The notes under the pieces: generated by a model
What the model was told of the DNA's origin: nothing
The model's database searches: none
The model's input: only the letters and a program-made list of their open reading frames with translations
NCBI GenBank assembly: GCA_038861395.1
Contig: JAWCDE010000005.1
Coordinates: 5,022-69,021 of the forward strand
From: Thermoproteota archaeon
GTDB lineage: Archaea; Thermoproteota; EX4484-205; JAAOZP01
Reading direction: 5' to 3'
DNA length: 64,000 nucleotides
Position numbers and translations under genes: made by a program
Shown here: piece after piece, positions 11,737-42,024 of the stretch
Numbering within the stretch: position 1 is the first letter of the stretch
Layout of the letters: every line of letters starts with the position of its first letter

Positions 11737-14460
11737 TCATTTAATTGTTGATAGTGCTAATTCATACCATATTGTTTGGTACTCTGGTCCTATTTTGAAA
11801 ACCTTATACTCTCCCTCGTCAACTACTTTTACCTGACTAGTTCTCCTACCCATATTGTCTAACGCCCATACCTCCAGATCCATGTCTGTCCTTATTCTTA
11901 TAGTCCCGGGTATTCCCTCGGTAACGGTCGGCGCATAGCCCCATTCCACCCCGCATGTCACTGGTCCCTTATAGATGTCGATGCCTGTAAGAAAGTTTCG
12001 GGACCATGTTAAGAGGCTCCTACCCTCTTCATACGTACGTAAACGCATTCCCGTATTCGTAGTATACCCTGTAGCAATTAAGAGCATTCTTTTTGAAGCT
12101 GATGAATTTTCATTATCAAGAGTTGAAAGCGTTATTACGCACCAACCGTCTAGAAGGGTTTCTCCCACCTCTATAATGATATTGCAAAATTTTAATGTTC
12201 TTCCTCCGCTGAAACCAATTATCGCAATACTTCTCGAAGTATTTACAAGTATTAATCCTCTTGAATCAGAGACGTCCCATATTATTTCTCCAGTATCAGA
12301 ACTATAGGTGTTTTGAGACTGTTTAAAATCAGTATCGTTATTAAAAGCGTTTTCAGTTGAAACCGCTGTCTTGTGAATCAAAGATAATAATGGGTTTAGC
12401 CCTGCAGTCCCCCCGTCGGGAAGCATCCAAGCATAAGCCTTTCCACCAGCTATAAACATAATTTCATCCTTACTATCCATCTTGACGGTTACAAGCCTTT
12501 CTGCAGGTTTTACATCCCCCCTTACGAAAATAAGATGTGCAGGTATTAGAGTTGCCATTTTAACCGGGTGTTGGTCTATGTTGAAGAATCCTCTAATCCT
12601 TTTAGAATCCCAATCGCCTCTTGCCCCGTAGTCGAAAAGGAATACCCCATCCCAGTCTTGGAGGGCTGCGTATGTTGCTAGGGTTAGAGCTGTTTCAGCA
12701 TCGTACATGTTTGGTGAGGGATGATTATACTCAGTAACGAAATGAGGTTTTCCATAGACTCTTTTAACAGCCAGGCCTGTAATAGTGCTTCCCTGCGGAT
12801 TATTAACCATGGGTTCATTAATAACATACCAATTCGCAGGATCCCAAGGGATTCCTGGAAACCAGGGATGCATCCAGTACGCATGCGTATCCACTATGTC
12901 GAGCTTAGCCATTATGTTGGGCGTGCTACAGCCAACTGTAGTGCCTATTACGAGAGCTTTAACACCGAGTTCTTCCTTTATGAAATGATACATTTCCGTG
13001 AAGAAACTCTCCTCCAAGAAGTATAGGAATTCGATCCAGTCGTTCTTAGCAACTGGGCTCCTCTTATTATACTCGGAAACGGGAAATATTTGAACAGTCT
13101 TATTACTCAGACTTTCACCATTCATTAAACCGTATCCGCTAAACCGCTTCATTGAAAAACAGGAAAACTGGTAAGTAGCAATATTTGCTCCAAGCCCTGA
13201 GATATCTAGCCTAGCATTCTCTTCGGATTGAGATGCGAGGAGAGCAATTTCGTAATCTTCCCAGTCTCTAGTAAGCGTTATATCGACTCGTTGCGAAAGC
13301 CATCCCCATGGTTCATGAGCCTGAACAAGACCTATGCTAACTCTAACATTCCTATCCGCCTTGGCGCCGAAACGTACTAAGTATGTTTCACCTTCGGCTA
13401 TTCTTAACCCAGGTTGGTTGAACTGTACGTGCCAGTTCTCCAAGCCTTTTTTCTTCACAGCAATCTCAAGAAATATTCTCCCCCCTGCTTCCGTGACTAT
13501 CCTGTAAGATGCTTCCGCGCCGTCGTGAACTTCTATAACCCATGAATCCAAGCCATTTTCAAAACGACCGTTTTTCAAAAGCTCAGTACTTTGACTAAGG
13601 CTTATCGGTGTTGCCCACGCCTTCCTAAGATTCTCATCGGAGCCGTATTTAGAGAGAAGATAATTATTCCACTTCTCCTTAAGCGCATCCTTGAATGTTT
13701 GCGGAAGCCTATCTATTGCACCGTCCAGCCAAGAATGTATCAAACCCTGTTCATTAACTATTTCCACAAAGGCCACAGCCGGGTCTTCGCCGTAGGCCAT
13801 TCCCGTATAGGGATTAAAATGAGTCAGAAGTTGTGTCGCATACTCCTTCTCTAAAGATTCAACCTCTTCCATGAAGAATCCTAGAATCTGCTGTTCCTTC
13901 CAGTCCACAAGCTCAATCTCCGAAGGCAAACCGTCTGCAATCGTGAACCTTCTCGAGACTAAGAGATTCAGGTCAATGTATATCCCGTTTTCCTTAAGGC
14001 AGTGTATAAAGTAGTCCAGCTTGTCGAGAGCATTATCGTTAAGCTTTCTAGTACCGCCCGCGGACCTATCGAAAATATTGAAGCTTTCCCAACTAGCATC
14101 CATGTGGTGGAACCGGACGGCGTTTACTCCAAACTTAGCAAGCCGAGCGGCTATTCTCTCCGCCTCATCCTTTTCTGGAAAGGCTGCACCACCACATATA
14201 TTAACTCCCAAAAACTTTATCCTTTCTCCTCCGACGTAAAGATGCCCGTCTCTACCTACATGGACATGCCCAAGACTGCCAGCTGGTTTTCTACTATTCA
14301 TGCTGACAATTGTTTCTTCACCATCGTCCCAAGGTAGGTAGAAGGGAAATACTCTTCCGCCAAGATTCTCATTCTTCAATAATACTTGTATTTGAGAGAA
14401 TACTAAAAGTATAATGATAGCCAGCAAGAGCGTTAAAATCAAGATACTTCTCTTCCCCAT
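11737..14460 (-). CDS. Membrane-anchored clan GH-A glycoside hydrolase with an inserted CBM4/9-like module (GH148-like beta-glucanase)
   Basis: N-terminal TM; VRFHHMD, acid/base EIVNEQ, CBM-like insert LLKNGRFENGLDSW...WHVQFNQPG...QAHEPW, then DTHAYW.HP, nucleophile VTEYNHP, YAALQDWDG. Confidence 0.8.
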   Translation of the reverse strand: MGKRSILILTLLLAIIILLVFSQIQVLLKNENLGGRVFPFYLPWDDGEETIVSMNSRKPAGSLGHVHVGRDGHLYVGGERIKFLGVNICGGAAFPEKDEAERIAARLAKFGVNAVRFHHMDASWESFNIFDRSAGGTRKLNDNALDKLDYFIHCLKENGIYIDLNLLVSRRFTIADGLPSEIELVDWKEQQILGFFMEEVESLEKEYATQLLTHFNPYTGMAYGEDPAVAFVEIVNEQGLIHSWLDGAIDRLPQTFKDALKEKWNNYLLSKYGSDENLRKAWATPISLSQSTELLKNGRFENGLDSWVIEVHDGAEASYRIVTEAGGRIFLEIAVKKKGLENWHVQFNQPGLRIAEGETYLVRFGAKADRNVRVSIGLVQAHEPWGWLSQRVDITLTRDWEDYEIALLASQSEENARLDISGLGANIATYQFSCFSMKRFSGYGLMNGESLSNKTVQIFPVSEYNKRSPVAKNDWIEFLYFLEESFFTEMYHFIKEELGVKALVIGTTVGCSTPNIMAKLDIVDTHAYWMHPWFPGIPWDPANWYVINEPMVNNPQGSTITGLAVKRVYGKPHFVTEYNHPSPNMYDAETALTLATYAALQDWDGVFLFDYGARGDWDSKRIRGFFNIDQHPVKMATLIPAHLIFVRGDVKPAERLVTVKMDSKDEIMFIAGGKAYAWMLPDGGTAGLNPLLSLIHKTAVSTENAFNNDTDFKQSQNTYSSDTGEIIWDVSDSRGLILVNTSRSIAIIGFSGGRTLKFCNIIIEVGETLLDGWCVITLSTLDNENSSASKRMLLIATGYTTNTGMRLRTYEEGRSLLTWSRNFLTGIDIYKGPVTCGVEWGYAPTVTEGIPGTIRIRTDMDLEVWALDNMGRRTSQVKVVDEGEYKVFKIGPEYQTIWYELALSTIK

Positions 14461-14545
14461 CGCTATTTATTCTTGAGACGGAGATATATAGGCATTTTAA
14501 TTATGAAGAAAGCAAAAATCAGCTATCCTGAAAGGAGAATCTTGC

Positions 14546-16450
14546 TTACCACGGCCATATCCAAGACGCTTTAGATACTAGCGTAATAGTTGTCCCGATT
14601 GCTACTATGATCCCCATCCCAGCCGAGAACCCTGCCAATACTATGCCCCTCATTGCGTTCCATCTTTCCGCTCCCATTAGACGTGGCATAAGGTATTTCC
14701 CAACCAGCGACATTATGAACACCATTATAGTGTAAGGTGGTATGGAATACATTCCACCGATCAGCCCAATGGGGCTTAACGGTACCCCTACTTTACTGAG
14801 AACTGTGGCTATCACGCCCCATACTATCGCGATACCCATGCCCATGAATATTTGGTCAATCCTTATCATTATCTGCCGGGTTGCGAAAAGCGAGTCGCTG
14901 ACAGCGTAGTTAGGCCATATGCCCATTACATACGGGTATACGAATGAGGGTATGGGGGCTATTCTCCAGAAAAAGTCCGTGAAAAGCAACCCGAACGTGG
15001 CGACCAGTATGAAAGATATTATCTGGGCCTTGTAAAAGTCCATTGGTCTCGTTTTCGTATTATAAGCTACTCTCGTGGCATTAACCCAGTAGGGAGTGGA
15101 GAATCCTGCTATAGCGGGTGTGAATATCCATCCTGCATAACCCTGGTAGGGGCTGTAATATATCGTGCTCTTCCACATGTTGTATATGAAGTCTGCTGAA
15201 AGAAGTATGCCGAGCTCGCCGTAGAGCCTAGCCGCCACCGATCCGAGTGCAAAGCTCATGCCTATCGATACAACTAGGGGCAACCACACCGGAACACCTG
15301 GAACAAGCCAGATGTAGAGAAGAGCGCTTAGTGCTGAAGATATGAGGTACACAGATAGCAGTAGTTTTGGCGATGGGAAGTCAGGTCCTCCCTTAATCTT
15401 ACTAAGCTTCGAAAGAGCCCTTACTATCTTTCTAAGAGATAGGAGGAATAGGTAAATAGACATTCCGAAGGAGAGTCCTATGAAGAGAGAAAGCCAAAGC
15501 TTTAAACCCGCTCTTTGAAGAATCAGGAAAATATTCATCCCCGGAGTATATTCCCGAGCCCACTCTGGCGAGAACTCTCTGAAAGTTGTTATGGTAAGTG
15601 TGTTGCCGAATACCCATGATATTAGAGATCCTACAAATAGCGAGCCAGTTAAGGAAGGCGGTAGAACCATGCCGTAAAGGAAACTCAATGGATCTGTCGC
15701 TATGCCTATTACCGCACCTGGGAGATTAGTCTGCGTATATTGAGTAAGATCTACCCACGGATACGGTATTAGTTGCGCTTGCGGTCCCACAAGGAGCGGC
15801 ACAAGGTAGAGGAGCATTCCGTATATCGCGCCCATGCTTAACGACACTATGAAGTACAGCAGGTCCTGCGGCTTCCTTTCATCCAAAGTATTTATCATGG
15901 CAGTATCAATTTGCGCGAAGGGGAATGGCAGAGGCTCCTCCTCTATGTAAAGGTATGAAAACACTATACTAAGAGAAAGCTCTGCGGCCAAGCCTAAGAT
16001 TGAGAATGCTAAATTCACAGCAATTGCGAAAAGCCAGTCGGGGTGCAGAAGAGTCCTCAACTGGTGGGCTGCGGAGGATATGGGGGGAGACATCCACGTG
16101 GGCACGTAATCCCTCAAAGGAGTTCCACCAAGCTTAAACTCCAAACTAAGAGGGAGATTAACATAGTAAGACCTGTAGATGAACCAGTAGTAGAGAGGCA
16201 TAGCGCCACCTATGCCTCCGACAATAGAGTATATTATGAACAGCTCCTGTTTAGAAAGCCTGCCGCCGTATATCCTCGCTAAAGCCGTGAACAGTATGGC
16301 CGTTACATAAGTGGCTGCTACGCTAACGCTGGAGCCCACTGCAAACCACAAGTATATAGATGCTGGTAGGAATATTAGCGCCGCCATAATCATTGCCAAG
16401 ATACTTCTCCAAGTTAGTCCGGGGTAAAATTCAATCCTAGGCTCAGCCAG
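14546..16450 (-). CDS. OPT-superfamily-like polytopic membrane transporter; probable CTG start
   Basis: Many TM helices; LSKQE, IEEEPLPFPFA. The frame extends past the called TTG (16399) through GLTWRS to a CTG at 16450 preceded by SD AAGGTGAGG; in-frame stop at 16459-16457. Confidence 0.75.
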   Translation of the reverse strand: MAEPRIEFYPGLTWRSILAMIMAALIFLPASIYLWFAVGSSVSVAATYVTAILFTALARIYGGRLSKQELFIIYSIVGGIGGAMPLYYWFIYRSYYVNLPLSLEFKLGGTPLRDYVPTWMSPPISSAAHQLRTLLHPDWLFAIAVNLAFSILGLAAELSLSIVFSYLYIEEEPLPFPFAQIDTAMINTLDERKPQDLLYFIVSLSMGAIYGMLLYLVPLLVGPQAQLIPYPWVDLTQYTQTNLPGAVIGIATDPLSFLYGMVLPPSLTGSLFVGSLISWVFGNTLTITTFREFSPEWAREYTPGMNIFLILQRAGLKLWLSLFIGLSFGMSIYLFLLSLRKIVRALSKLSKIKGGPDFPSPKLLLSVYLISSALSALLYIWLVPGVPVWLPLVVSIGMSFALGSVAARLYGELGILLSADFIYNMWKSTIYYSPYQGYAGWIFTPAIAGFSTPYWVNATRVAYNTKTRPMDFYKAQIISFILVATFGLLFTDFFWRIAPIPSFVYPYVMGIWPNYAVSDSLFATRQIMIRIDQIFMGMGIAIVWGVIATVLSKVGVPLSPIGLIGGMYSIPPYTIMVFIMSLVGKYLMPRLMGAERWNAMRGIVLAGFSAGMGIIVAIGTTITLVSKASWIWPW

Positions 16451-16549
16451 AGTTCCTCACCTTTAAGGGAAAGGGAGTTAGGCACTCTAATAAAAACTTT
16501 TTTTAAGATTAAGGCTGAAATTAAGATTTATTAGGAGGAGTAAGAGAGA

Positions 16550-19500
16550 ATGACTCTGAGGCGAAGGCCAATGCAAATTAAGGATTACAGGCCGAGTATC
16601 ATAGCAATATTCTTAATCGCTCTCATCGCATTAGCAGGGGTGCAGTATTTTCTGACGGTAATAAGCTCCGCCTCCTCGCCTTCAACTATCCCGCCTTCTA
16701 CAGAGACTGTTGACGCTCAGAACCTCTTTCCATTGAATCTTCAGAGAATGAGTAGCCTGATACAAGAAATCTCTTCCTTCGGTTCCAGGATGACTGGTTA
16801 TCCAGGTTATTATAGAGCACTCGATTATCTCTACAACTACTTTAAGGACGAGTTGAAAATCACGCCTGTGGTTCATAGGTACAAGGTGCTAGTGCCGTAT
16901 GATGAAGAAACCTACATCGAGGTCTTGGAACCTTTTTCGGCTAGGTTCGACGCGTACGCACTGTACCCCAACGGGATTAATCCTTCTCCCACGCCCCCGG
17001 AAGGTATTGTCGGAAGCCTTGTTTACGTTAAGGATGGTAGTTTAGAAAACTTCGATGGGAAGGACATTGAAGGAAACATCGTCGCCATGGATTTCAATTC
17101 TCAAGATAACTGGCTTAAGGCCGCTAACCTTGGGGCCCAGGCCGTGGTATTCATCGAGCCGGAGTCAACCCTGTACCCTGAGTGTGAAGCAAAATTTCTG
17201 GATACTCCAATATGCTTTCCGAGGGTTTATGTTAAAAAAACCGATTGGGATCTTCTAAAGAACGCGGGTAAAATCAGGCTTGTCTCCAAGGTTTACTGGA
17301 AGGAGATTGAAGCAGTAAACCTGCTGGCAGTGATTAATGGAACAAAGTCCAGCGACGTCATAATGCTTTCAACACATTTCGACTCGTGGTCTGTGGTTCC
17401 TGGACTGGCTTCGAGCAAAACCGAGCTCCTGCCCTTGGCATTACTGTTAGACTATGCGCACTACCTTAAGGAGAATCCCCCCTACTACACTGTCTGGCTG
17501 GTCTTGTATTCCGGGCACTGGCAGGCCCTTAAAGGCCCAAGGGAATTTGTTGAGGACTACTTTTTCAGCGAGGACTTGATGAGCGGTAGGATAGCAATAC
17601 GTGGGAACATAAACTTTGACCTTATAGCTAGTGACTGCGACGGCCTGCAGATACTGCAATCCAGTTATTACTCCACTTACGGTGGAAACTCTATACATGG
17701 TTCGGGGATGAGTAATAGGCTAGGATGGTTCCGATGCCCCTCTCCTTCTGGCTCTATAATCGTGGACATACTGTTAAGAGATGAAGTCAAAAGTTTCTGC
17801 CTACAGCGTCTAAAAGCCAACAACTCCATAAACCTGGTAAACGCAGCAATCGACACAGGCGCATCCGGGGGGTATAACATAAACCCAGTCGGTAGTGAGC
17901 CTTATCCATATATGCTGGATTCGGAACCGGTCTCCATAGCTGGCATAGCTGCCTTCTCCATAACGAGTAGGCGGTCAAACAGGCTCTACGTGGGTTCTCC
18001 AGTGAGTGATGAGAAATACGCTGACCTTACTGTTTTAGACCCGTATTTACAGCTCGCCCTATACATTACTAATGAGCTCTTAAACATGGAATGGAAGATA
18101 GAAAGGGTTAGACCAGAAAGATACCTCTTAGTACAATCCAGAGGCTTCCCTGGTTACGCAACTCTATACGGCAGAGTTGTGGCCTACAATTTTAGCAAGG
18201 GATGGTACGATGGGGTTCCTAACGCAATAGTAGAGCTGAAGCTGAATACTCAGTGGGGGCCCTCGACATATAAGCTTAACAGGATAGTTATGAAAGCGGA
18301 TGAGCAAGGGTATTTCACTGTACACGGTGTACCTATCTCCGGCGCCGCAGCAGGAGGTAATGTTGTAATACCTTTCTCCAGATGGGTTGCGCAAGCCTGG
18401 GTTTTAGACGATAAGGGCACTATCCTAATGGCTACCGACATGGGTCAATTCGGCATGAGCAGGTTTCCGCAGGAAGTGATCATCCTGCATGAGCATGAAA
18501 ACATTACCGTGGTGGTGGCTAAAGTAGTTTCAGTCGAGATGTTTGATTTCGAACTACCAACCGAGCTCACTACCCCCAGTATAAGAGACCCCCGGGCTGG
18601 GACATTCGAGAGATGGAGGTTCTCGAGAGCAGACCTCATACCTTTGGAGTTTTACAGTAAGAGTATACCGATAAGCTTCGGCTCTTATTGTAACGGTTGG
18701 GAGCCTGTAGCAATAGCTTGGATTCAGCCTGATGTCCGGTTTGCAGTCCTGGGTACGGCAGCGCTTCTAACAAATTCTTCAGCCGAGAATACAGAGGGAT
18801 ATGGTCTCTACGCTAAATATGGGGAAAAGATAAGGGTAAGGTTTTCTGCCCTACAGGTTGCTAGAGACTTATACTACATATCCTACGGGAGGTATGCAGA
18901 GCTTGCTAAGAAAAACGTTGGAAGCCCGAGCGCGGATGAGACCCTCAATAAGGCGAAGGAGTATTTGGAGAAGGCTGAAGAATACTTAAGCAATAAGAAA
19001 TACAGTGAAGCGTATACTTGCGCGCTAATGGCTAGGGCGTATGGTGCAAAGGCCTACGGCATGGAGGTCATGCCGCTTATAAACGACTCGGCGAGATCAC
19101 TCCTCTACATATTCATCATAATCATACTGGGTGCCTTCTTCTTAGAAAAGGTTTTAGTTCACGCGCAGGGTAATAAGCGTTTAATAGCTATCGTTGCATT
19201 CGGAGGGTTCTTCCTAGGGCTTTTCGCAATAGTTCATCCCGTTTTCGGCTTAATGAGCAATATATCGTTGGGGATGATTGGCTCGCTCATATTGGTGGTT
19301 TTACTAATTACGGTGATTATTCTGCTCTCGCTTAGCGAGGAAGTCAGGGCGGGCATCGAGAAAAGAATCCTCGGTGTCCACAGGGCTGAGATAAGCCGGC
19401 TTGACACGGCTATGATATCTTTCTCGCTTGGAAGCGAGCACATGCGGCGTAGGCCTCTGCGTGCAATACTTGTTCTCTTAACAATGATCACCATGATTAT

Positions 19501-21127: not shown

Positions 21128-21779
21128 TATAAGTAAAATCCTCTACTTTTTTCGCTAACCCTAATACCGTTAGATAACTTCTCCCAGTGCCCCCGCCGCT
21201 GAAAGGCATACCGTACATTAAATGAGCCCTCAAAATCCATGAGACGGATTGAGGAGACTCTAGATACTCCTTAACTAGTCTGCCGATTACTAGGCCCCTG
21301 CCGGAGGCAAGCATGTAGTATTCGAGCAGTTCAGCAGGTATTAGCCTTGGAAATATTTCTAAAAGCTCCAACCTGCTCTTCTTAATGTCTTTCTCAACAT
21401 TCTTATCGTTCTTCAACATTGAGAAAAGTCCCCCTCCTTCTGGTAATGGAATCTTACTTTTAAGCGCGGAGAGCTCACTCCACCTCCTAACTTCCACTCT
21501 CTTAACCAATACTCCTTTCACCTCCAGTTCCACGGATTCCGACAGCATTTTCTTCAACAATTGAGAACGTTCTCTGTCTCGAACTCTGTCCTCCGGGATA
21601 TCGAGTACTCCAATAATCTCAAACTTCATGTCAAGACTAAACTGCATCCTCCTCACTATAATCATTGAAGTAAAATTGGGCTGTTTAACCGGCTTAACTA
21701 GGAGGTTTCCTCTCTGCGTTTCTTCTACCGATGCTTCAAACTTCTCCAAAGTTTTCTTTACAGCCCTTGTCCAAGACAT
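21111..21779 (-). CDS. Hypothetical protein (222 aa)
   Basis: Clean ORF, convergent with and overlapping the end of the FtsX gene, divergent from the OPT-like gene. Confidence 0.65.
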   Translation of the reverse strand: MSWTRAVKKTLEKFEASVEETQRGNLLVKPVKQPNFTSMIIVRRMQFSLDMKFEIIGVLDIPEDRVRDRERSQLLKKMLSESVELEVKGVLVKRVEVRRWSELSALKSKIPLPEGGGLFSMLKNDKNVEKDIKKSRLELLEIFPRLIPAELLEYYMLASGRGLVIGRLVKEYLESPQSVSWILRAHLMYGMPFSGGGTGRSYLTVLGLAKKVEDFTYTSLLP

Positions 21780-21934
21780 TCTTACTGTCAGGAGGCTATT
21801 TCACTGGTATGATATAACTTTGTGCCTTGGGTTTACTGTCACGATGGGTGTTAAGCCGTTCGGATAGGGTTTTCAGCCTATTTTTCAACACCGCTAAAGA
21901 AAATTAGAGTTACCATTGATGATTTTTTTAGCAA

Positions 21935-21980
21935 AACTTAAATACTTACTATCTGTATAACATATACGAAGGTGAAAATA
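21935..21980 (+). promoter_or_regulatory. Putative promoter/SD of OPT-like copy 1; 22-bp block AACATATACGAAGGTGAAAATA is identical upstream of copy 2
   Basis: 21959-21980 equals the reverse complement of 43916-43937; contains a GGTGA SD; TTAAATA TATA-like box upstream in both copies. Confidence 0.6.
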
Positions 21981-21983
21981 TAT

Positions 21984-24083
21984 ATGGCTACGGAAGTAGA
22001 GCTAAAAACAGGCTTAACCGTAAAATCGCTTGCCTTTTCAATCCCCTTGACACTGATATTTGCAGTACTCTCAGCCATAATGGGTACCTACACTGATAAG
22101 ACCGGGACGTTCGGAACCTTCATCCTCCCTATGATTTACATCGTGATCATCCTAGAGCTGCTTGGGAGAGCAAGCCCTAAGGCGAGGCTGACTCCCCAGG
22201 AATACGTTTTCGTGTTCACAATGTTCACATGCCTAGGCATGCACAGTTATCTGACGATGCATGCTGCCGCCCACCACAATCCTATTAACATGCCTTTGTA
22301 CGGAGCGTTTAGCGACTACCTGGCTTTTGGGATAGGCGACTTAAGAGACCCCTGGAGCAGAGCTGTTCCTTCCGTAATAGTTGCACCCGAGCCGGTGCGC
22401 TTCGACATTGCGACGATGCTTCTCAACGGGAGGGCTCCGGGTCAAGCAGTACCATGGGGATACTTAATGACTTCGATAGTGTACTGGGGACTGATATACC
22501 TGTTCTACTCTTTCATAAGCATATTCGTAGCTTTCACCGTAGGAAGGGTCTGGATAGAGGAGGAGAGGCTAGTGTTCCCATTGGCATTGCCCTCGCTCCA
22601 CTTGTTCAAGGAGGCGGGGGAAATCGACCCGGCTACGAACAAATCTAGGCTCTTTGACTTCAAGCTGGCAACTACGAAAGTCTTCTGGGGAATGTTCCTA
22701 ATAGGCGCGCTCGGTGGCATAATCCCCGTTGTGGTTGAGCTCTGGCCAGCGTTCCCAGCATCCGCCTGGTGGGGTGAGAACAGGGTTGACATGCCATTCC
22801 TGGCACAGGCAATACCCGGTGCCTACGCATCGTTCATCTTCTTCATACCTCAAATAGCCGTCGGGCTGGTCATGCCTAACGATGCTTTAGTAACACTAAT
22901 TCTGGGGTGGATAATCTTTGGTGTAATATACCAAGGGCTAGCAGTGGCCATGGGCTGGATGGCATACTCGCCTGGCATGGAGTTCCTCTGGCCTTGGGAT
23001 AGCGGTGCGGGGACGACATTAATGCCGTTCCCCTACAGGCTCGTCGGCTCAACCGGTTTAGCGCTTGGAATAGCGGTATGGTGCATCTACACTCAGAGGA
23101 AGAGATTCCTAAGCGTGTTCTCATCCCTGTGGAAGGGCGGTGAGGAGAGAGGCCTTTCATTGAGGATTGTTTCACTACTGGTGCTAATAGGTGCCTTCGG
23201 ATGGTACGCGTTGATGCTCGTAGAAGGAGCCGACCCGCTCGTCGCCCTGCTCATACCCTTATGGGGCTTCCTGTTCAACGTTTTCTACGCAAGAGTATAC
23301 GCAGAAGTGTTCTGGCACGTGGGCACTGGCTGGGGCCAGGGCACAGCTGTCTGGGAGCCGACTTACCTAGTTGGAGTAGGGTTAAGGGGATGGCCTGCTC
23401 CCGAGGCAGTAACATGGAACACGCCTATGACTGACCCCGGCTGGTTCACGATAGCTAGGAACATCGCTAACGTTGGCCACTGGAACATATCGTTCTCCCC
23501 GCTTGCATCGGGACACATGGTGACGCTTTACAAGCTTGCCTATGATCTTAAGATGAGGCTTAAGGACCTGTTGATTGCCATCATCATAAGCATACTGATA
23601 CTCCTATTCATATTCGTACCACTAGTATCCTACTTCATGTTCAATACGAAAGGCGGGATAAGCCAGCTTGGCGACATGTATACGTGGTGGCCATGGATTG
23701 CGCAAGGCCAGTATCATAGGGGTAGAGCTGCGCCAACCGGCATGACTATAGAATACTCGTTACTAGTGGTTAACCTACTAGGATTCGTGCTGGCTATAGT
23801 GCTCTACATACTTAAGCTGAAGGTGCCGATCTTCTGGTTCATAAACGTCCCAGCGCTCTCCATAGCCATGACCATACCAACATACATGTGGATGACTTCG
23901 CTGATTGCCTTGATCATAAAGTTCGTCGTAATAAGGACTGTTGGCATTAAGAAGTACGAGGAGTATGCTATTCCTATTGTAGCAGGCTGGATCCTGGGAT
24001 TCGGAGCCATGTGGCTGCCGGCTGCAATACTAAACCTAGTCGGGCCGACAGCAACAAGGTTCTCAACACTATTCGCACCCTAA
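21984..24083 (+). CDS. OPT-superfamily / DUF6785-like polytopic membrane protein, copy 1
   Basis: GLT..S N-terminus, LTPQE, WIEEERLVFPLA, many TM helices, Trp-rich loops; close paralog at 41821-43911. Confidence 0.75.
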   Translation: MATEVELKTGLTVKSLAFSIPLTLIFAVLSAIMGTYTDKTGTFGTFILPMIYIVIILELLGRASPKARLTPQEYVFVFTMFTCLGMHSYLTMHAAAHHNPINMPLYGAFSDYLAFGIGDLRDPWSRAVPSVIVAPEPVRFDIATMLLNGRAPGQAVPWGYLMTSIVYWGLIYLFYSFISIFVAFTVGRVWIEEERLVFPLALPSLHLFKEAGEIDPATNKSRLFDFKLATTKVFWGMFLIGALGGIIPVVVELWPAFPASAWWGENRVDMPFLAQAIPGAYASFIFFIPQIAVGLVMPNDALVTLILGWIIFGVIYQGLAVAMGWMAYSPGMEFLWPWDSGAGTTLMPFPYRLVGSTGLALGIAVWCIYTQRKRFLSVFSSLWKGGEERGLSLRIVSLLVLIGAFGWYALMLVEGADPLVALLIPLWGFLFNVFYARVYAEVFWHVGTGWGQGTAVWEPTYLVGVGLRGWPAPEAVTWNTPMTDPGWFTIARNIANVGHWNISFSPLASGHMVTLYKLAYDLKMRLKDLLIAIIISILILLFIFVPLVSYFMFNTKGGISQLGDMYTWWPWIAQGQYHRGRAAPTGMTIEYSLLVVNLLGFVLAIVLYILKLKVPIFWFINVPALSIAMTIPTYMWMTSLIALIIKFVVIRTVGIKKYEEYAIPIVAGWILGFGAMWLPAAILNLVGPTATRFSTLFAP
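22401..22459. repeat. 59-bp perfect inverted-repeat patch shared with 43436-43494
   Basis: TTCGACATTG...ACCATGGGG is identical in both OPT-like paralogs. Confidence 0.85.
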
Positions 24084-24128
24084 AAACACTAAACCCTCTC
24101 TTTTTTCTTTCTAAAATTTTAAACTTCT
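23880..24128. repeat. 249-bp perfect inverted repeat, left arm (3' end and downstream tract of OPT-like copy 1)
   Basis: Read base by base, identical to the reverse complement of 41776-42024. Confidence 0.9.
24094..24112 (+). terminator. Pyrimidine/oligo-T archaeal terminator-like tract
   Basis: CCCTCTCTTTTTTCTTTCT just after the stop; the same tract follows copy 2. Confidence 0.5.
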
Positions 24129-24216
24129 CTAACTCTAAACCATGTTAAGAGCGTATCTTGAATTATTTAAATCATAGTTAAAAATTTAAAGGCTACAAAA
24201 ATCTGTTAGAAGATTG

Positions 24217-25656
24217 ATGAAGCTAGGTAAGCATGCTTACTTAATCATTCTCTTTGTAATATTTCTACTGTTATTGTTCTCGTCTTACAGCTTGTTTACC
24301 TGTTTCCAATCCCTTAGGAGGATGGAGAGTCAGCTTGACGAGTATGATAAGGATTTCAAATCCTTGGCAAGCCTTATATTCGGTTTATATTACGACGATT
24401 ATGGGGGAGTATTGCACACGAAAGGAAGAGCCACAGGTTTCTTCCATGTTGAGAAGATTGGCGATGTATGGTGGATAATAAACCCTGAGGGGAACGTTTT
24501 TCTTTCGAAAGGAGTCAATGCAATAAACTTTCAAGGAGATTACTCGCCAGCACTCGGGTATAGTCCTTATAACAGAGCTGTGTTAAGGAAGTACGGAAAC
24601 TCAGAGACTTGGGCTAGGGCGACAGTTACAAGGCTTTGCGAATATGGTTTTAATACTATTGGTGCATGGTCAAGCGAGGAACTTTTTACTCAGGGAATAC
24701 CTTACACAATCATTCTTAACATCGCAGCCAGGGCAGGAGCAGAATGGGTTAGCGGCAGGGTTACGGACTTTTTCTCACAAGATTTTGAAAGGATTGCAAA
24801 CGAGGTGGCTGAGGAAATATGTGCCGCTAGGAGGAATGATCCTTATCTTTTAGGCTACTTCACTGACAATGAGCTAAGATGGTCTCCGGATTGGAGATCA
24901 TCTAAACATCTTTTCGACGACTATATTGCTCTGGAAAGGGATGCACCGGGTAAAAGAGCCTTAGTCCAATATTTAGAGAGCAAGTATGGAAGCATAAGAG
25001 AGCTCAATGCGAAATGGGGTATGAGCTTCAATTCTTTTGAAGACATTCTCGATACTTATACGCTTCCCCAAAGCAGTTTAATAGATCCTGATAGGCTAGG
25101 CTTCTTGGAGGTCATTTCTAGAAGGTATTTCCAAGTTTGTCATGATGCAATAAGAAGGCACGATCCAAACCATATGATTTTAGGGTGTAGATTCGCATTT
25201 AGACCTCCTGACGAGGTTTTGAAAGGATGCATAGGCTATATCGATGTAATTTCAATGAACAACTATGGGTGGGAGCCTCCTGTCGAAGACCTTAGGGAAA
25301 TGCATAATTTAACAGGCCTACCGATAATGATAACGGAGTTTTCGTTTAAAGCAATGGATTCAGGTCTGCCAAATACGCGAGGAGCCGGGTCCCCATTAGC
25401 AACGCAGAAAGACAGAGCAGAACGATTTGAAAAATATGTTAGTAAACTCCTGTCTGAGCCTTACATAGTCGGTTATCACTGGTTCCAATACGCAGACCAG
25501 CCAGCGCAGGGAAGGTTCGACGGGGAAAATAGCAATTTCGGTCTTGTTAACATAGAGGACGAGCCCTGGAAGATTTTAGTTACAAGGGCTACGGTCGTCA
25601 ATCTTAAAGCTGAACTCATACATGCAAGGTCCGTTGAAAAATCTAATCCGCCTTAG
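24217..25656 (+). CDS. Membrane-anchored GH50-like glycoside hydrolase
   Basis: N-terminal TM; ATGFFHVEK...WWIINPEG, GFNTIGAWS, LLGYFTDNEL, ITEFSF, VGYHWFQYADQP..GRFDGENSNFG. Confidence 0.8.
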   Translation: MKLGKHAYLIILFVIFLLLLFSSYSLFTCFQSLRRMESQLDEYDKDFKSLASLIFGLYYDDYGGVLHTKGRATGFFHVEKIGDVWWIINPEGNVFLSKGVNAINFQGDYSPALGYSPYNRAVLRKYGNSETWARATVTRLCEYGFNTIGAWSSEELFTQGIPYTIILNIAARAGAEWVSGRVTDFFSQDFERIANEVAEEICAARRNDPYLLGYFTDNELRWSPDWRSSKHLFDDYIALERDAPGKRALVQYLESKYGSIRELNAKWGMSFNSFEDILDTYTLPQSSLIDPDRLGFLEVISRRYFQVCHDAIRRHDPNHMILGCRFAFRPPDEVLKGCIGYIDVISMNNYGWEPPVEDLREMHNLTGLPIMITEFSFKAMDSGLPNTRGAGSPLATQKDRAERFEKYVSKLLSEPYIVGYHWFQYADQPAQGRFDGENSNFGLVNIEDEPWKILVTRATVVNLKAELIHARSVEKSNPP

Positions 25657-25920
25657 TTTTTAGTAAGATCATATTTGCAACATTAAATCCTTTTTCTATT
25701 CGTCACGAGGGTTTGTCGATAAGAATTGCTTAAACATGAAACATTCAATAAAATTCGATGAATTGAGCAACCTGATTCGAAGGTTGCTGCATGATTCCAG
25801 TATCAATTATGACGAGACTCTAACCATGTTCTTAACCGACTTATAAAACATCTAAAACGATTTACTGTACGTGTTAAAACTATAAATATTGTAAAAACTT
25901 AACATGATTGGTGTGGAAGG

Positions 25921-28224
25921 ATGAGGGACAAGCCTGTTTACCTAGATTCTTCAGCCCCGGTGGATCTAAGAGTGAAGGACCTTTTGAGAAGAATGACTCT
26001 GGAGGAGAAGATAGCTCAACTCCAGAGTCTCTGGCTGAGAATAGGAGGAGAAGTACTTACTGAGGATAAGTTTAAAGAACTAGCTGGGAAAGGTATCGGG
26101 GAAATAACGCGTGCTTCAGGAGCCTTAGGAGTTAAACCGGGAGAAGGCGCAAGAATAGTTAATGAAATCCAGAAGTTTCTAGTTGAAGAGACTAGGCTGG
26201 GCATACCAGCTATAATCCACGAAGAGTGTTTAACCGGCTTCTTAGCAATGGGCGCCACAGCCTTTCCTCAAGCAATAGGCTTGGCCAGTACGTGGAATCC
26301 CGAGCTTATTGAACAAGTTGCCTCTGTAATAAGGAGACAGATGAGAGCATGCGGAGCCCATCAGGGTCTTGCACCAGTACTCGATGTTGCGAGAGACCCG
26401 AGATGGGGGAGAACAGAGGAGACCTATGGGGAAGACCCCTATCTTGTTGCACGCATAGGGGTTTCCTACGTTAAGGGTCTTCAAGGAGAGGATCTGAGAA
26501 ACGGAATAATTGCTACTGCTAAGCATTTTGCCGCTCACGGTTTTCCGGAGGGGGGTAGGAACTGTGCACCAGTCCACGCTACTCCGAGAGAGTTTAGGGA
26601 AGTATTTCTATTCCCCTTCGAAGCCGTGGTTAAGCTGGCTGGAGTATATTCAATCATGAATGCATATCACGATATAGATGGTGTTCCATGCGCTTCTTCA
26701 AGGGTTCTTCTCACCGACATTCTCAGGGGCGAGTGGGGTTTCAATGGATTTGTAGTATCGGACTACTTCGCCATAAGAATGCTTGAAAACTTCCATTGTA
26801 CTGCTTCAGACGCTAAAGACGCTGCCGTAAAGGCGATTATTGCAGGCATAGACGTTGAGCTACCTTTAGTCGACTGCTACGGTAAGCCCCTTCTAGATGC
26901 GGTGAGCGAAGGCCTCGTACCCGAGGGAATAATAGACATAGCTGTATCCAGGGTTTTAAGGGCTAAGTTCCTACTCGGCTTGTTCGAAAACCCTTATGTT
27001 AAGGCTGAGGAAGCTGCCGGGCAACTGGATAGGGAAGAGGATAGGGCTTTAGCTCTTAGGGCGGCTAGAGAATCCATAGTTCTCCTTAAGAACAATGGTG
27101 TTTTGCCAATACCTAGCTCAGTAAGGTCTATAGCTGTAGTCGGTCCTAATGCTGACAGTAAGAGGAATCTTCATGGAGACTATAGTTTCACTGCCCACAT
27201 GGATAGTAAAGACAGGCCTCCCGGCTACGACGAAATATTTCAAGAAGGTGCTGTGAGGACTGTAAGCATACTCGAGGGTATTAAGAGCAGAGCCCCTCCG
27301 AGCGTTACTATTAACTATGCAAAGGGCTGCGACATAACGGGGGATTCGAAAGAAGGCTTCAAAGAGGCTGTTGATATTGCTATGAAATCAGACATAGTGA
27401 TAGCTGTAATGGGTGAAAAATCCGGCATGTTTGAAACAGGTGTTTCAGGAGAGGGCTGCGATCGCTACTCGCTTAAGCTTCCCGGAGTGCAGGAGGACCT
27501 AATGAAAGAGCTCTGTAACACAGAGAAGCCCATAGTTTTAGTCTTGGTAAACGGTAGGCCGCTTTCACTCGGATGGATAGCTGAGAAATGTTCGGCTATA
27601 ATCGAAGCATGGTATCCCGGTGAGGAAGGAGGTAATGCTGTAGCGGACGTTCTTTTCGGATATTATAATCCTGGAGGGAAACTCCCAATAACGTTTCCAA
27701 AAGACGTGGGACAGATACCGTTAAACTACAGTAGAAGACATTCTTCCTTTAGGAACTACGTGGGAATGGATGCTAAACCATTATTCCCGTTTGGACACGG
27801 ACTAAGCTACACGCGTTTTGAATACAGCTCGCTAGAAATAAACCCCAGCAATATTAGCCCCATGGGGCAGGTTAAGATACGCTTCAAACTGAAGAATTCA
27901 GGAGATAGAATGGGCGATGAGGTTGTTCAACTCTATGTGAGAGATATTGTTGCCAGTGTTGCCAGACCAATAATGGAGCTTAAAGGTTTTAAAAGGGTAA
28001 GTTTAAAACCGGGAGAGGTGAAAGAAGTAGAGTTCACTCTCTTTGCGGAACAGCTTGCATTCTACGACGAATATATGAGGCTGGTTGTTGAACCAGGGGT
28101 TTTCGAAGTGATGATTGGAAGCTCCTCCGAAGACATAAGGCTGAGAGGCGAGTTTAAAGTGGTTGGAGAAACTAGGGTAATTAAGAATAGAACCATTTTC
28201 TTCAGCGAAGTCGAAGTAAAGTAA
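25921..28224 (+). CDS. Glycoside hydrolase family 3 beta-glucosidase/xylosidase (cytoplasmic)
   Basis: MTLEEKIAQL, RDPRWGRTEETYGED, KHFAAH, VVSDY nucleophile, GEGCDR, PFGHGLSYT, Fn3-like C-terminus; no signal peptide. Confidence 0.95.
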   Translation: MRDKPVYLDSSAPVDLRVKDLLRRMTLEEKIAQLQSLWLRIGGEVLTEDKFKELAGKGIGEITRASGALGVKPGEGARIVNEIQKFLVEETRLGIPAIIHEECLTGFLAMGATAFPQAIGLASTWNPELIEQVASVIRRQMRACGAHQGLAPVLDVARDPRWGRTEETYGEDPYLVARIGVSYVKGLQGEDLRNGIIATAKHFAAHGFPEGGRNCAPVHATPREFREVFLFPFEAVVKLAGVYSIMNAYHDIDGVPCASSRVLLTDILRGEWGFNGFVVSDYFAIRMLENFHCTASDAKDAAVKAIIAGIDVELPLVDCYGKPLLDAVSEGLVPEGIIDIAVSRVLRAKFLLGLFENPYVKAEEAAGQLDREEDRALALRAARESIVLLKNNGVLPIPSSVRSIAVVGPNADSKRNLHGDYSFTAHMDSKDRPPGYDEIFQEGAVRTVSILEGIKSRAPPSVTINYAKGCDITGDSKEGFKEAVDIAMKSDIVIAVMGEKSGMFETGVSGEGCDRYSLKLPGVQEDLMKELCNTEKPIVLVLVNGRPLSLGWIAEKCSAIIEAWYPGEEGGNAVADVLFGYYNPGGKLPITFPKDVGQIPLNYSRRHSSFRNYVGMDAKPLFPFGHGLSYTRFEYSSLEINPSNISPMGQVKIRFKLKNSGDRMGDEVVQLYVRDIVASVARPIMELKGFKRVSLKPGEVKEVEFTLFAEQLAFYDEYMRLVVEPGVFEVMIGSSSEDIRLRGEFKVVGETRVIKNRTIFFSEVEVK

Positions 28225-34443: not shown

Positions 34444-34990
34444 TTAGAGTCCGATTAATATTTCCTCAAATATCTTCATCGTCCTCTCTTTCTTAGCTTT
34501 AAGTTTCACTCTCCTAAGATCTATTTTCGTAAACTTCATTATCCCCCTAACGTCTTCAATATCTTTCGCAGCTCTGTCTCTCGACACTGTCGCCTTAATC
34601 ATCCGTAGCTTCGCTAAAATCAATTCCTCAGGATCTTGGAAAAAAGTATTTAAATCGAAAATCGTACCCTTCCTCCTTTTAAACTTCCTTTCAGAAAATA
34701 TTATGTCAACACTGTAAGGAGACTTCTCATCATTAATTGTTATAATCTTATACCCAGATTTCAACACTTTCCTTACTGTTTCTTTTTCGACCTTAAGTTT
34801 TGCCCTTTTAAGAGCTGAAACAAATTTGTCAATATCTTTTTCACTAGAAACCGTTACCATAATATCAATATCAACAGTAGCACGGGGAACCATAGAAACT
34901 AGCTGCTATAGCGCCAGTAAAAGCATATTCTAAACCTGCTTCCTCTAACGCAGTTACAAGCCTCCTGACCAGATTTTTCAATGTATTCAA
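34444..34990 (-). pseudogene. Frameshifted nucleotidyltransferase (DUF6036-like, putative TA toxin)
   Basis: TTG at 34990 reads MNTLKNLVRRLVTALEEAGLEYAFTGAIAASFYG, then the protein continues in another frame PRATVDIDI...PEELILAKL...KDIEDV; about 2 nt missing near 34890. Confidence 0.75.
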
Positions 34991-37014: not shown

Positions 37015-37489
37015 AAAAAAACATTGCAAGCGGTAGTATATAATTCTAGATTTTCGAACAATTTAAAAACCTGTAGTAATGGAAATGAAATACTATAATG
37101 GTTTTTAGATTAAGAGATTTATTTTTCAGCCACTTATGTTCCTCTTAACATGGCTAGTGGAGAGAACTTGTTTCACGATTTAGGGATTATACAAAGTATA
37201 TGCTTTACAAAATGTATGTAAGTACGCTTGGTGAACTGAATTATCGGACAGATATTTCCACGAATAGCTTTAAGAGCTCTACGCAATGTTAAATTCACGT
37301 GCGATATTGACTTTTTAAAAAGAAATTGGCAATACCAAGTTTTAATTAGAATTTTTAGGGAAACTTTTAGTTAGATTGAGAGATTTTCCAAGAATATCCG
37401 AAAAGAGGTTAAAGCACTTTCAATAATACTAACTTATTTTGTAAAAGAAAGGAAAGCTTATCTATTGGCATGCTTGTCGTTTTTACAAA

Positions 37490-39008: not shown

Positions 39009-39014
39009 TGAGTA

Positions 39015-41775: not shown

Positions 41776-42024
41776 AGAAGTTTAAAATTTTAGAAAGAAA
41801 AAAGAGAGGGTTTAGTGTTTTTAGGGTGCGAATAGTGTTGAGAACCTTGTTGCTGTCGGCCCGACTAGGTTTAGTATTGCAGCCGGCAGCCACATGGCTC
41901 CGAATCCCAGGATCCAGCCTGCTACAATAGGAATAGCATACTCCTCGTACTTCTTAATGCCAACAGTCCTTATTACGACGAACTTTATGATCAAGGCAAT
42001 CAGCGAAGTCATCCACATGTATGT
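41776..42024. repeat. 249-bp perfect inverted repeat, right arm
   Basis: Reverse complement of 23880-24128. Confidence 0.9.

Follow-up and report, generated by a model that had tools for sequence, protein, structure and literature searches.

The block at positions 11737–28224 of the window (the whole stretch of 64,000 nucleotides that was analysed) is built around a conserved membrane module: the genes for two predicted OPT-fold permeases and a giant surface protein, joined in one subclade by a gene for a 222-aa protein, are inherited together. We consider it about evenly balanced whether the block serves a Brockarchaeota-like hot-spring archaeon as a locus for glycan utilisation, with this multi-copy Thermoproteota module as its transport core. 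Sugar-chain import is the best reading of the module from its gene context, because glycosidases, Leloir-pathway genes and TrmB regulators adjoin modules, and we hold it with much the same middling confidence.

Organization of the locus

The seven ORFs of the block were recovered exactly where the original prediction had placed them. They are listed here with a stand-alone permease from elsewhere in the window, the evidence being given in brackets.

11737–14460, minus strand: GH148-like endo-β-glycanase, 907 aa (Pfam, PDB matches, EngU layout)
14546–16399, minus strand: predicted OPT-fold permease A ('TM617'), 617 aa (hhalign to the DUF6785 family)
16550–21127, plus strand: giant surface protein, 1525 aa (Pfam, AF2, Foldseek)
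21111–21779, minus strand: 222-aa soluble protein, fold unassigned (iterated HMM, always beside modules)
21972–24083, plus strand: predicted OPT-fold permease B, DUF6785 family, 703 aa (PF20581, AF2, Foldseek)
24214–25656, plus strand: GH50-like glycanase (GH50L), 480 aa (PDB 4bq2)
25921–28224, plus strand: GH3 exo-glycosidase, predicted cytoplasmic, 767 aa (Pfam GH3 domains, PDB)
41821–43911, minus strand: second DUF6785 permease, stand-alone, 696 aa (75% identical to the 703-aa protein)

As had been noted originally, the block is devoid of a solute-binding protein, a MalFG-type permease, an MFS transporter and an ABC ATPase: a Pfam scan of its seven proteins found no member of the SBP, BPD_transp, MFS or ABC_tran families, and the ABC_tran gene closest to the block lies at positions 23–766 of the window. 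A SusC/SusD pair is likewise absent from the Pfam families of the block, whose likeness to a polysaccharide utilisation locus (PUL) is one of logic only. Among 35 related loci, the same seven-gene order recurs, with 61–98% protein identity, in seven whole loci (L003, L005–L009 and L011; L009, counted here, stops before GH3) and in three contig-end pieces (L023, L024 and L037). The seven-gene arrangement is therefore not a product of chance.

Could the glycosidases and the module nonetheless be mere neighbours in the window, the module having a different substrate and the glycan products entering by ABC importers? Several features fit this alternative: the DUF6785, GH50L and GH3 genes each stand behind a TATA-like box of their own, the gaps amount to 130 bp between the DUF6785 and GH50L genes and 264 bp between GH50L and GH3, orientations diverge, and five relatives (L007, L008, L009, L011 and L037) have an additional AFOR gene separating GH50L from GH3. 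Moreover, classical importers are not scarce in this genome, which has 11 BPD_transp_1 matches in five places elsewhere, and the GH148-like, GH50-like and GH3 enzymes flank the module in the Brockarchaeota-like clade only. Yet the seven-gene order is kept at 61–80% protein identity across that clade, and independent module–glycosidase links are found in five other family-level groups (f7, f25, f27, f38 and f48), so that we regard a mere neighbourhood as rather improbable.

The exact 9-mer AACCATGTT occurs twice in the whole window, upstream of GH50L and of GH3. It is shared with the nearest relative alone, L003, and is missing from L005–L011, L024 and L037, for which reason it was rejected as a clade-wide operator. 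Note that the 696-aa protein lies outside the locus, in a synteny with a methyltransferase, a DUF6786 gene and a 279-aa ORF that is kept in L004 and L010.

Two distantly related permeases

The 703-aa protein belongs to the DUF6785 family (PF20581, 67.7 bits for a cut-off of 25), as does its 696-aa paralogue (58.9 bits, same cut-off); its match to Pfam OPT (PF03169) reaches 21.6 bits, below the gathering cut-off of 25.8. Its AF2 model (pLDDT 80, pTM 0.88) matches barley YS1 alone in Foldseek (7wst, E 4.5e-10; 7wsr, E 2.9e-09; TM 0.59–0.70), the next match having an E-value of 0.024, and the identity to YS1 is just 13%. The 617-aa protein, which is also polytopic, has no Pfam or NCBIfam match; in a relaxed Pfam scan it does not reach the DUF6785 cut-off and shows no OPT match even at E 10. 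Homology between the two proteins is visible at the profile level only: BLASTP gives a marginal E-value of 0.027, whereas hhalign aligns the 617-aa family with the DUF6785 family over 573 columns (probability 99.3%, E 3.9e-20). Since hhalign ties the 617-aa family to DUF6785, whose model matches YS1, the two proteins appear to be distant paralogues that both adopt the OPT fold, as judged from a structural model for the 703-aa protein and from profile similarity for the 617-aa protein. The description of both polytopic proteins as OPT-like is thus borne out.

Profile searches of PDB sequences with both permease families returned nothing useful. The Atlas clusters nearest the 617-aa protein are called 'OPT 21%' and 'peptide transporter', automatic names that provide a lead only. 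The true start of this protein is uncertain, because the reading frame stays open immediately ahead of the first canonical start of the ORF (to about 16435) and there encodes the conserved residues GLTWRS. Word-based homologue searches reached just 27 and 29 archaeal proteins, and neither DUF6785 nor DUF6784 is mentioned in any paper of the literature searched.

The giant surface protein and its small neighbour

Pfam recognizes in the 1525-aa protein a Peptidase_M28 domain (24.8 bits, cut-off 21.3) and an FtsX domain (39.2 bits, cut-off 25.5); the match to MacB_PCD, at 22 bits, falls short of the cut-off of 27. The N-terminal part comprises a TM helix, a PA + M28-fold ectodomain (residues about 60–520) and then β-sandwich domains; it is followed by a helical stalk (766–859), three TM helices and FtsX TM1. 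A MacB-like extracytoplasmic domain (about 1000–1250) comes next, then FtsX TM2–4 (1259–1371), i.e. the FtsX domain carries its outer domain between TM1 and TM2. The protein ends with a conserved, family-specific cytoplasmic domain (1372–1525), the family of which amounts to 1,531 representative clusters, more than 1,300 of them at E ≤ 1e-10.

The AF2 model of residues 1–860 has a pLDDT of 82. In Foldseek, its ectodomain matches PA/M28 aminopeptidases, GCPII and the transferrin receptor (E about 1e-21 to 1e-16), the M28 fold being evident from the matches to 2ek8, PaAP and BSAP (E about 1e-21 to 1e-20). The original prediction had called the protein M28-like: this stands for the fold, on both Pfam and Foldseek evidence, and fails for catalysis. 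The catalytic Glu-Glu of M28 enzymes is replaced by [H/Y]-[W/Y/H] in 19/19 sequences of the giant family, and in 8 of these 19 the bridging Asp has given way to Thr, Ala or His (those of the window and of its Brockarchaeota-like and Thermofilaceae relatives, together with L027, L029 and L036). The co-catalytic zinc site (His, bridging Asp, Glu-Glu, Asp/Glu, His), judged on the Glu-Glu and the bridging Asp, is thus not preserved, and the PA/M28 ectodomain of this family is predicted to be catalytically dead.

The FtsX and MacB-like domains bear on another alternative, namely that the module is a machine of the envelope that works by FtsX/MacB-like mechanotransmission, is driven by an unlinked ABC ATPase, and either handles or activates surface proteins or glycans or exports a compound via the OPT-fold proteins. 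The FtsX TM2–TM3 loop (ERAREVYIFSVVGLSPMG) is kept and resembles what we take to be the ABC-ATPase-docking, or coupling, helix of MacB and LolC, which leaves room for an unlinked ATPase and for a role other than import. Known FtsX systems (FtsEX, LolCDE, MacB) act outside the membrane and not as importers, a PMT-type glycosyltransferase sits inside a Caldarchaeales-type cluster (L028), and the genome of the window offers 41 ABC_tran matches and five further giant FtsX ORFs (983–1,786 aa), in addition to that of the window and one 245-aa ORF. However, no ABC ATPase travels with the module: within the Pfam-scanned flanks, an ABC_tran gene was found in L028 only, about 5 kb from the module. In addition, the module is surrounded by genes for catabolic enzymes and sugar regulators and not by genes of envelope synthesis, and the sole solved relative of the permeases, YS1, is an importer. 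An envelope machine is, in our estimation, a quite doubtful reading.

The gene for the 222-aa protein and the giant gene converge, with 17 bases shared by their 3' ends. The 222-aa protein, predicted to be cytoplasmic, has no Pfam or NCBIfam family match and no usable Atlas match. An iterated HMM retrieved 21 ORFs, all adjoining modules, in Brockarchaeota-like, Thermofilaceae and Caldarchaeales-type loci and in L029; the 222-aa protein is the fourth component of the module in one subclade. A complex prediction with the C-terminal domain of the giant protein (1372–1525) gave a score of 0.01 and a mark of 0.32, which is informative neither way.

Three glycosidases

The 907-aa protein has an N-terminal hydrophobic segment (membrane anchor or signal), weak GH5/GH42-like matches (Cellulase, GH42) at residues 79–285 and a CBM_4_9 insert at 293–420 (46 bits) that splits a clan GH-A barrel; its PDB matches are CBM4 (1gui, 3k4z) and GH5 (3pz9). 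This is the layout of EngU, the founder of GH148, for which an excerpt of PMC5725463 gives 905 aa, a signal peptide at 3–22, GH-A1 at 83–241, CBM4 at 293–430 and GH-A2 at 476–616. The split barrel of GH148 is therefore found in the 907-aa protein, the likeness being one of layout and not of alignment to EngU. The same excerpt (PMC5725463) upholds the original premise that GH148 cleaves β-glucans.

The 480-aa protein consists of an N-terminal hydrophobic segment (membrane anchor or signal) and a catalytic domain only. Over residues 114–465 it resembles the catalytic part of GH50 agarases (4bq2, E 6.5e-54); further PDB matches are 5z6p (E 6.5e-48) and 6xj9, and Pfam gives weak GH42 and Glyco_hydro_cc matches. 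That some GH50 enzymes cleave β-glucans, as had been assumed, agrees with a passage of PMC11079163, in which one GH50 enzyme is a β-1,3-endoglucanase and GH50_3 is a β-1,3-glucanase subfamily.

The 767-aa protein is a complete GH3 enzyme (N, C and Fn3-like domains at 280.8, 200.2 and 91.5 bits). As read from the sequence, it is without the N-terminal hydrophobic segment that both endo-glycanases possess. It scores 803 bits against NF052329 (β-xylosidase/α-L-arabinosidase), below the cut-off of 1050, and matches the PDB β-xylosidases 7zb3 and 8c7f with an E-value of about 1e-273, as against about 1e-150 for β-glucosidases; its closest solved relatives are thus β-xylosidases, not β-glucosidases.

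Distribution of the module

A cluster of all three membrane genes is present in 20 of the 35 loci found via the 703-aa protein and in 22 of the 40 loci centred on DUF6785 matches. Five more of these 40 associate DUF6785 with the giant gene, four of them having a giant ORF or a contig that is truncated where the retrieved sequence ends, and 12 are stand-alone permeases, many beside URO-D or MttB-type methyltransferases, which indicates that the family is not devoted to sugars only. A search of 401 Thermoproteota genomes found DUF6785 in 64, and the loci come from 13 family-level groups. Several genomes have two or three modules (G168, with L088, L089 and L105; G288; G327), and the genome of the window has a second module copy on contig C50. 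In a metatranscriptomic library from a different study (X10), contigs 90–99% alike span portions of the genes for the 617-aa, giant and DUF6785 proteins; the run was found via those very genes, contig depths cannot rank genes and the library may contain DNA, so that these contigs suggest, at best, expression of the genes in relatives.

Sugar-related genes around the module

The enrichment in CAZymes looked for at homologous clusters is present, though modest. Among 215 neighbour ORFs, 18 belong to glycosidase families (spread over 13 of 36 loci), compared with 3 among 130 control ORFs (from 2 of 20 regions) taken 30–50 kb away on the same contigs, in stretches of 7 kb versus flanks of about 12 kb (Fisher one-sided p 0.016, a naive value given related, non-independent genomes and our own ORF calls). 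Broad 'sugar metabolism' genes are also frequent in the controls (about 7 of 20 regions).

Outside the Brockarchaeota-like clade, the neighbours of the module include GH36 with Leloir-pathway genes, GH57, GH31, GH15, GH94 and TrmB regulators. Same-strand runs with short gaps are found in several loci: GH36-GalE-GalT-DUF6785-giant-TM617 in L089 and L093, which belong to two family-level groups; giant-DUF6785-TM617-GH57-GH57-like in L105; and, in L073, GH57-TM617-DUF6785-giant. Regulators of the TrmB sugar type adjoin modules in L092 and L104, GH94 in L088, and GH31 together with GH57 in L084 and L085. Among the unassigned ORFs of other module loci, a relaxed Pfam scan gave weak DUF4861, CarboxypepD_reg, coiled-coil, GH116-like (L072) and GH57 (L029) matches.

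This context also bears on a rival reading, in which peptides or glycopeptides would be the cargo of the module, its inactive M28/PA domain would be a peptide receptor derived from an aminopeptidase, and the glycosidases would be incidental or directed at the glycan part of glycopeptides. Characterised OPT proteins are carriers of peptides or metal chelates, which counts for peptide uptake and against the sugar reading. Most prokaryotic OPT subclusters are likewise predicted peptide carriers in the part of PMC3061005 concerned with them, the Atlas clusters nearest the 617-aa protein bear the automatic name 'peptide transporter', and the giant ectodomain has a peptidase fold. Within the fetched flanks, peptidases lie beside two module loci only, L068 (M55) and L027 (S49, S9), and a NamZ/MurQ-like amino-sugar cluster adjoins the stand-alone DUF6785 of L017. 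On the other hand, glycosidases, Leloir-pathway genes and TrmB are far commoner neighbours than peptidases, the catalytic residues are gone in 19/19 sequences of the giant family examined, and the Pfam OPT match is below cut-off or absent in the two permeases. Peptide uptake is therefore an explanation that we judge unlikely.

Oligosaccharide import by proteins usually annotated as peptide transporters, the central idea of the original prediction, gains from the OPT fold and the CAZyme context; it is weakened by the restriction of the glycosidase trio to the modules of one clade.

Proposed mechanism and implications

According to the sugar-import reading, the anchored GH148-like and GH50-like endo-glycanases would cleave, outside the cell, a β-linked glycan of plant or microbial origin. 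The giant protein may then serve as a tethered receptor or handling device, in the role played elsewhere by a binding protein or SusD. Excerpts of PMC9691689 describe YS1 as a homodimer with an elevator-type model, which makes it plausible that the co-encoded paralogues form a heterodimer. The two permeases would import oligosaccharides, with the proton gradient as the proposed drive, and the β-xylosidase-like GH3 would release monosaccharides in the cytoplasm; the module has no ATPase of its own. Paralogous modules elsewhere may handle other sugars: the context suggests α-galactosides for L089 and L093, α-glucans for L073, L105 and L092, and β-linked hemicellulose fragments for the window.

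More tentatively, the module could represent a new class of archaeal glycan-uptake machine, in which a pseudo-peptidase/FtsX receptor feeds a heterodimeric OPT-fold permease in the absence of a dedicated ATPase and which exists across Thermoproteota in many copies with differing sugar specificities. Such a machine would be the functional equivalent of SusC/D, or of an ABC importer with its binding protein. If so, many archaeal 'peptide transporters' and 'M28 peptidases' would be sugar-uptake parts, and the diet reconstructed for uncultured archaea of sediments and hot springs would shift from protein towards polysaccharide. OPT-like and M28-like genes of this kind should not count as evidence of protein degradation in metagenomes. 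The module also seems to provide an example of an FtsX domain working without its own ATPase.

Comparison with known systems

The 703-aa permease resembles the OPT/YSL transporters (TC 2.A.67; YS1) in fold and in length (about 600–700 aa). The permeases of the module differ from them in that, in module loci, they always come with a second paralogue and the giant FtsX fusion, in a gene context of sugars and not of peptides or metal chelates; the 703-aa protein has an identity of only 13% to YS1. An OPT relative carrying oligosaccharides is not a new idea: the section of Gomolplitinant and Saier (2011, PMC3061005) on Bacteroides OPT subcluster 4C, which is co-transcribed with an anchored endo-xylanase, already predicted from gene context an importer of xylan oligosaccharides. 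That subcluster is bacterial and has a single permease and no FtsX-fusion partner; both systems are known from gene context and are set side by side by description.

With type VII ABC systems (MacB, LolCDE, FtsEX), the giant protein shares a four-helix FtsX domain whose TM1 and TM2 are separated by a large outer domain. Unlike them, it has no ATPase in its module, its FtsX domain lies behind an ectodomain of ~860 residues and three extra helices, and it has a C-terminal domain of its own. It shares with the transferrin receptor and GCPII a PA + M28 fold exposed at the cell surface. The peptidase site of the transferrin receptor is non-functional and the domain serves as a receptor. The kinship is one of fold only (14–16% identity), and the giant protein differs in being archaeal and fused to FtsX.

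As a whole, the block follows the logic of PULs, be they of the SusC/D type of Bacteroidota or of the Gram-positive type with an ABC importer and a binding protein: anchored endo-enzymes, dedicated uptake and an internal exo-enzyme. It differs from them by having no SusC/D, outer membrane, binding protein or ABC importer, and no regulator tied to it. The word 'transporter' is absent from the main text of the Brockarchaeota paper (PMC8065059). A likeness of another order exists with certain Opp/Dpp-type systems of hyperthermophiles, which belong to another superfamily, are driven by ATP and use a binding protein: although annotated as 'peptide transporters', they are sugar importers and so set a precedent. 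Such oligosaccharide-carrying ABC importers occur in Pyrococcus, Sulfolobus and Thermotoga. To our knowledge, the capture and import of polysaccharide fragments by archaea that lack an outer membrane are known almost only for binding-protein ABC systems; the module, a large, uniform and undescribed gene set, is a candidate for a second archaeal route.

Conservation of the permease–FtsX module in Thermoproteota

The module, which comprises a 617-type permease, a giant FtsX-fusion protein (1525 aa in the window) and a DUF6785 permease (703 aa), is real, conserved and undescribed. The 703-aa protein retrieved 35 loci, in 20 of which the three genes lie together; two others (L029 and L031), which lie at a contig end, are without the 617-type gene. 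Out of 401 Thermoproteota genomes, 64 have a PF20581 match, against 0 of 14 control genomes. Two single-contig genomes, G045 and G189, are among the DUF6785 carriers; the G045 module adjoins GH57. Among 40 DUF6785-centred stretches (up to about 13–20 kb) taken from the 64 DUF6785-carrying genomes, 22 contain the full set, five DUF6785 plus the giant gene (with the giant ORF or the contig cut at the stretch end in 4/5), one the permease pair alone and 12 a stand-alone DUF6785 gene. Metatranscriptome contigs cover the module genes, although expression level is not readable from contigs. DUF6785 and DUF6784 were not mentioned in the literature searched, and none of the literature matches listed joins FtsX, M28 and OPT in archaea.

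Several genomes carry two or three modules. The window's own genome has a second copy, 48–68% identical, on a 5.7-kb contig (G000:C50:1-5674):

617-type gene, 68% identity, truncated at the contig end
giant gene, 57% identity
222-aa type gene, 48% identity, likewise truncated

In one subclade the module has a fourth member, the 222-aa protein: an iterated HMM retrieved 21 ORFs, every one beside a module. At modules of other lineages (L072, L082, L088, L092, L093, L095 and L103), one or two family-less ORFs of 400–880 aa lie inside or beside the module, some with weak DUF4861, IgGFc-binding or CarboxypepD_reg matches or with coiled coils; these are possible extra surface components.

The two permeases and the OPT fold

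In family scans, the 703-aa protein belongs to DUF6785 (67.7 bits), its OPT match staying below threshold, and the 617-aa protein matched no family. Aligned with hhalign, the two family profiles share 573 columns at a probability of 99.3% and E 3.9e-20; the two are old paralogues. For the 703-aa protein, an AlphaFold2 model built from a 14-sequence alignment (pLDDT 80, pTM 0.88) had barley Yellow Stripe 1 as its sole PDB match (E 4.5e-10 and 2.9e-09; TM 0.59–0.70), the next entry having an E value of 0.024. Yellow Stripe 1 is described as a homodimeric, probably elevator-type importer (PMC9691689). Given the profile alignment and this single structural match, the term "OPT-like" used in the original prediction is therefore right at the level of the fold, whereas membership of the Pfam OPT family did not hold.

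Several of the related loci L005–L011 have, about 60–90 bases before the DUF6785 start, an inverted repeat of the type GGGTTTATGAACCC, which the window shows in partial form only; it could be a regulator site. As for the 617-aa family, the residues GLTWRS, conserved at its N-terminus, precede the first ATG, GTG or TTG of the window's gene in the same frame (16400–16435, minus strand), with no canonical start codon between the stop and these residues. This lineage may use a rare start codon or make a shorter protein.

A giant surface protein with a degenerate peptidase site

Residues 1–860 of the giant protein, modelled from 19 sequences (pLDDT 82), matched PA-domain M28 aminopeptidases, GCPII and the transferrin receptor. 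In the alignment of orthologues and paralogues, the catalytic/ligand Glu-Glu pair is replaced by [H/Y]-[W/Y/H] in 19/19 sequences, and the bridging Asp is retained in distant members and gone in the window's clade; judging from these residues, the PA/M28 ectodomain is a pseudo-peptidase. The M28 part is followed by beta-sandwich domains and a helical stalk; then come three helices and an FtsX domain, whose outer domain is MacB-like. A 154-residue cytoplasmic domain closes the protein at the C-terminus. This last domain occurs in 1,531 representative clusters (E ≤ 0.001; 1,317 at ≤ 1e-10); among the best 150, most are proteins of about 1,430–1,570 aa that carry it at their extreme end.

Binding-protein, BPD_transp, MFS and ABC_tran families were absent from all seven proteins of the block in the family scan. 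No ATPase accompanies the module, yet the FtsX domain retains a loop that we take to resemble a coupling helix. The missing ATPase next to such a loop is the main unexplained point, and the module may on this account have a mechanotransmission role.

Other giant FtsX-domain ORFs (983–1,786 aa) are present on contigs C3, C12, C17 and C22 of the window's genome (G000) and in two further stretches (L077:16400-19972 and L122:190-4245), the last (1,351 aa) adjoining an M1 peptidase gene. Giant FtsX fusions seem to be a wider theme in this and related archaea.

Glycosidases and surroundings of the window block

The ORF listing and family scans confirmed the seven genes of the block and their positions. 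Two of its glycosidases start with a hydrophobic segment:

11737–14460, minus strand, GH148-like protein (907 aa), weak clan GH-A matches at 79–285 and a CBM_4_9 module at 293–420
24214–25656, plus strand, GH50-like protein (480 aa), matching GH50 enzymes in their catalytic part (4bq2, E 6.5e-54)

In domain layout the former agrees almost residue for residue with the GH148 founding member EngU (905 aa; signal 3–22, GH-A1 83–241, CBM4 293–430, GH-A2 476–616; PMC5725463), the likeness being judged by layout. EngU is reported to act on mixed-linkage beta-glucans and CMC (PMC5725463), and a GH50 enzyme with relatives in thermophilic archaea is described as a beta-1,3-endoglucanase (PMC11079163). 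The third enzyme, a 767-aa GH3 without N-terminal hydrophobic segment, has beta-xylosidases as its closest solved relatives by a wide margin (7zb3, E 1.9e-273, against about 1e-150 for beta-glucosidases). The exact 9-mer AACCATGTT, present at only two places in the 64 kb (24138–24146 and 25822–25830), upstream of the GH50-like and GH3 genes, was considered as a shared upstream element and led nowhere, being conserved in the nearest relative (L003) only.

That relative is a MAG labelled Candidatus Brockarchaeota, with 88–98% identity over the block proteins; the runs holding the window's DNA are hot-spring metagenomes. The paper describing Brockarchaeota emphasizes many CAZymes and xylan use, and a term search of its main text did not find the word "transporter" (PMC8065059). 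An archaeal NurA–HerA–Mre11–Rad50 set adjoins the block: directly downstream of the GH3 gene, 28339–34425 holds an operon for NurA, HerA, an Mre11-like phosphoesterase and a Rad50-like ATPase, a neighbourhood kept in relatives. The window also contains a PIN gene and an AbiEii-like fragment (34444–34893), and two KaiC-like ATPase genes (44224–45884 and 54160–55468), of which one has a 289-aa ORF without family behind it and the other an AsnC-type HTH gene in front.

Sugar genes around homologous modules

If the module imports oligosaccharides, as the original prediction proposed, CAZymes should be enriched around its homologues. We scanned 215 neighbour ORFs (≥ 100 aa, greedy calls, Pfam E ≤ 1e-8, module genes excluded) in 36 new loci, after removal of the duplicates L087, L096, L097 and L102, and, as controls, 20 stretches of 7 kb located 30–50 kb away on the same contigs. 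Glycosidase families were found in 18/215 neighbour ORFs and 13/36 loci (GH57 x4, a GH57-like PSMA domain, GH31 x2, GH4 x2, GH36 x2, GH127, GH140-like, GH35/42, GH94, GH15, GHL10 and GH38), against 3/130 control ORFs and 2/20 stretches (GH4, GH3, NamZ). The excess is thus in the expected direction, with naive Fisher p values (0.016 per ORF, 0.032 per locus) that are indications only, given the relatedness of the genomes and the shorter control stretches.

The gene order around the modules is more telling than these counts. A one-strand run GH36–GalE–GalT–DUF6785–giant–617 occurs in two family-level groups (L089, L093); L105 has giant–DUF6785–617–GH57–GH57-like on one strand and L073 GH57–617–DUF6785–giant. 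The modules of L092 (with GH15) and L104 have TrmB regulators beside them, and that of L088 has GH94. A scan of 129 ORFs from an initial 12 loci at E ≤ 1e-5 gave GH57 x3 (L013), GH2 (L012), a fucosidase (L021), NamZ with MurQ-like genes (L017) and GFO/IDH/MocA with sugar-isomerase-type barrels (L028); BLAST detected a GH3 in L027. Peptidases are seldom beside modules (L068, L027).

Three observations run counter to the sugar reading: general sugar-metabolism genes occur in about 7/20 control stretches as well, 11 BPD_transp_1 matches are spread over five places of the window's genome, and stand-alone DUF6785 genes often adjoin URO-D or MttB-type methyltransferases. The window itself carries a stand-alone DUF6785 gene (41821–43911, minus strand) whose product is 75% identical to the 703-aa protein, and some members of the family may carry methylated compounds. 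Near this gene are a methyltransferase (40882–41724), an AFOR with ferredoxin (38610–40757), a DUF6786 protein (37490–38530), for which a PDB sequence search returned nothing, and a 279-aa ORF (36190–37029); L004 and L010 keep the order DUF6785–methyltransferase–DUF6786–279-aa ORF. URO-D-like (MtaA-type) genes recur beside DUF6785, mostly stand-alone, in L016, L071, L074, L075, L076, L079, L083, L091, L095 and L100, and MttB-type genes in L075; URO-D-like/MttB-type genes occur in one control stretch too (L118).

A putative glycan-uptake machine

Gene content, folds, the dead peptidase site, co-inheritance and neighbourhoods are what the analysis demonstrates. Nutrient uptake is the best-supported role of the module, with oligosaccharides as the predicted main substrate class. 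The original interpretation is partly supported: the OPT fold and the sugar neighbours agree with import; the flank of three glycosidases is a feature of Brockarchaeota-like loci alone (7 whole, 3 partial). At the window locus, a beta-linked glycan would be cut outside, imported and split inside. The two permeases would form a heterodimer, import would be coupled to protons and the giant protein would serve as receptor. The likely substrates, as predicted from the GH148-like, GH50-like and beta-xylosidase-like GH3 enzymes, are xylo- or gluco-oligosaccharides. The known kinds behind such a system are OPT-fold carriers and PUL-like loci; the module as such could represent a new class of archaeal glycan-uptake machine.
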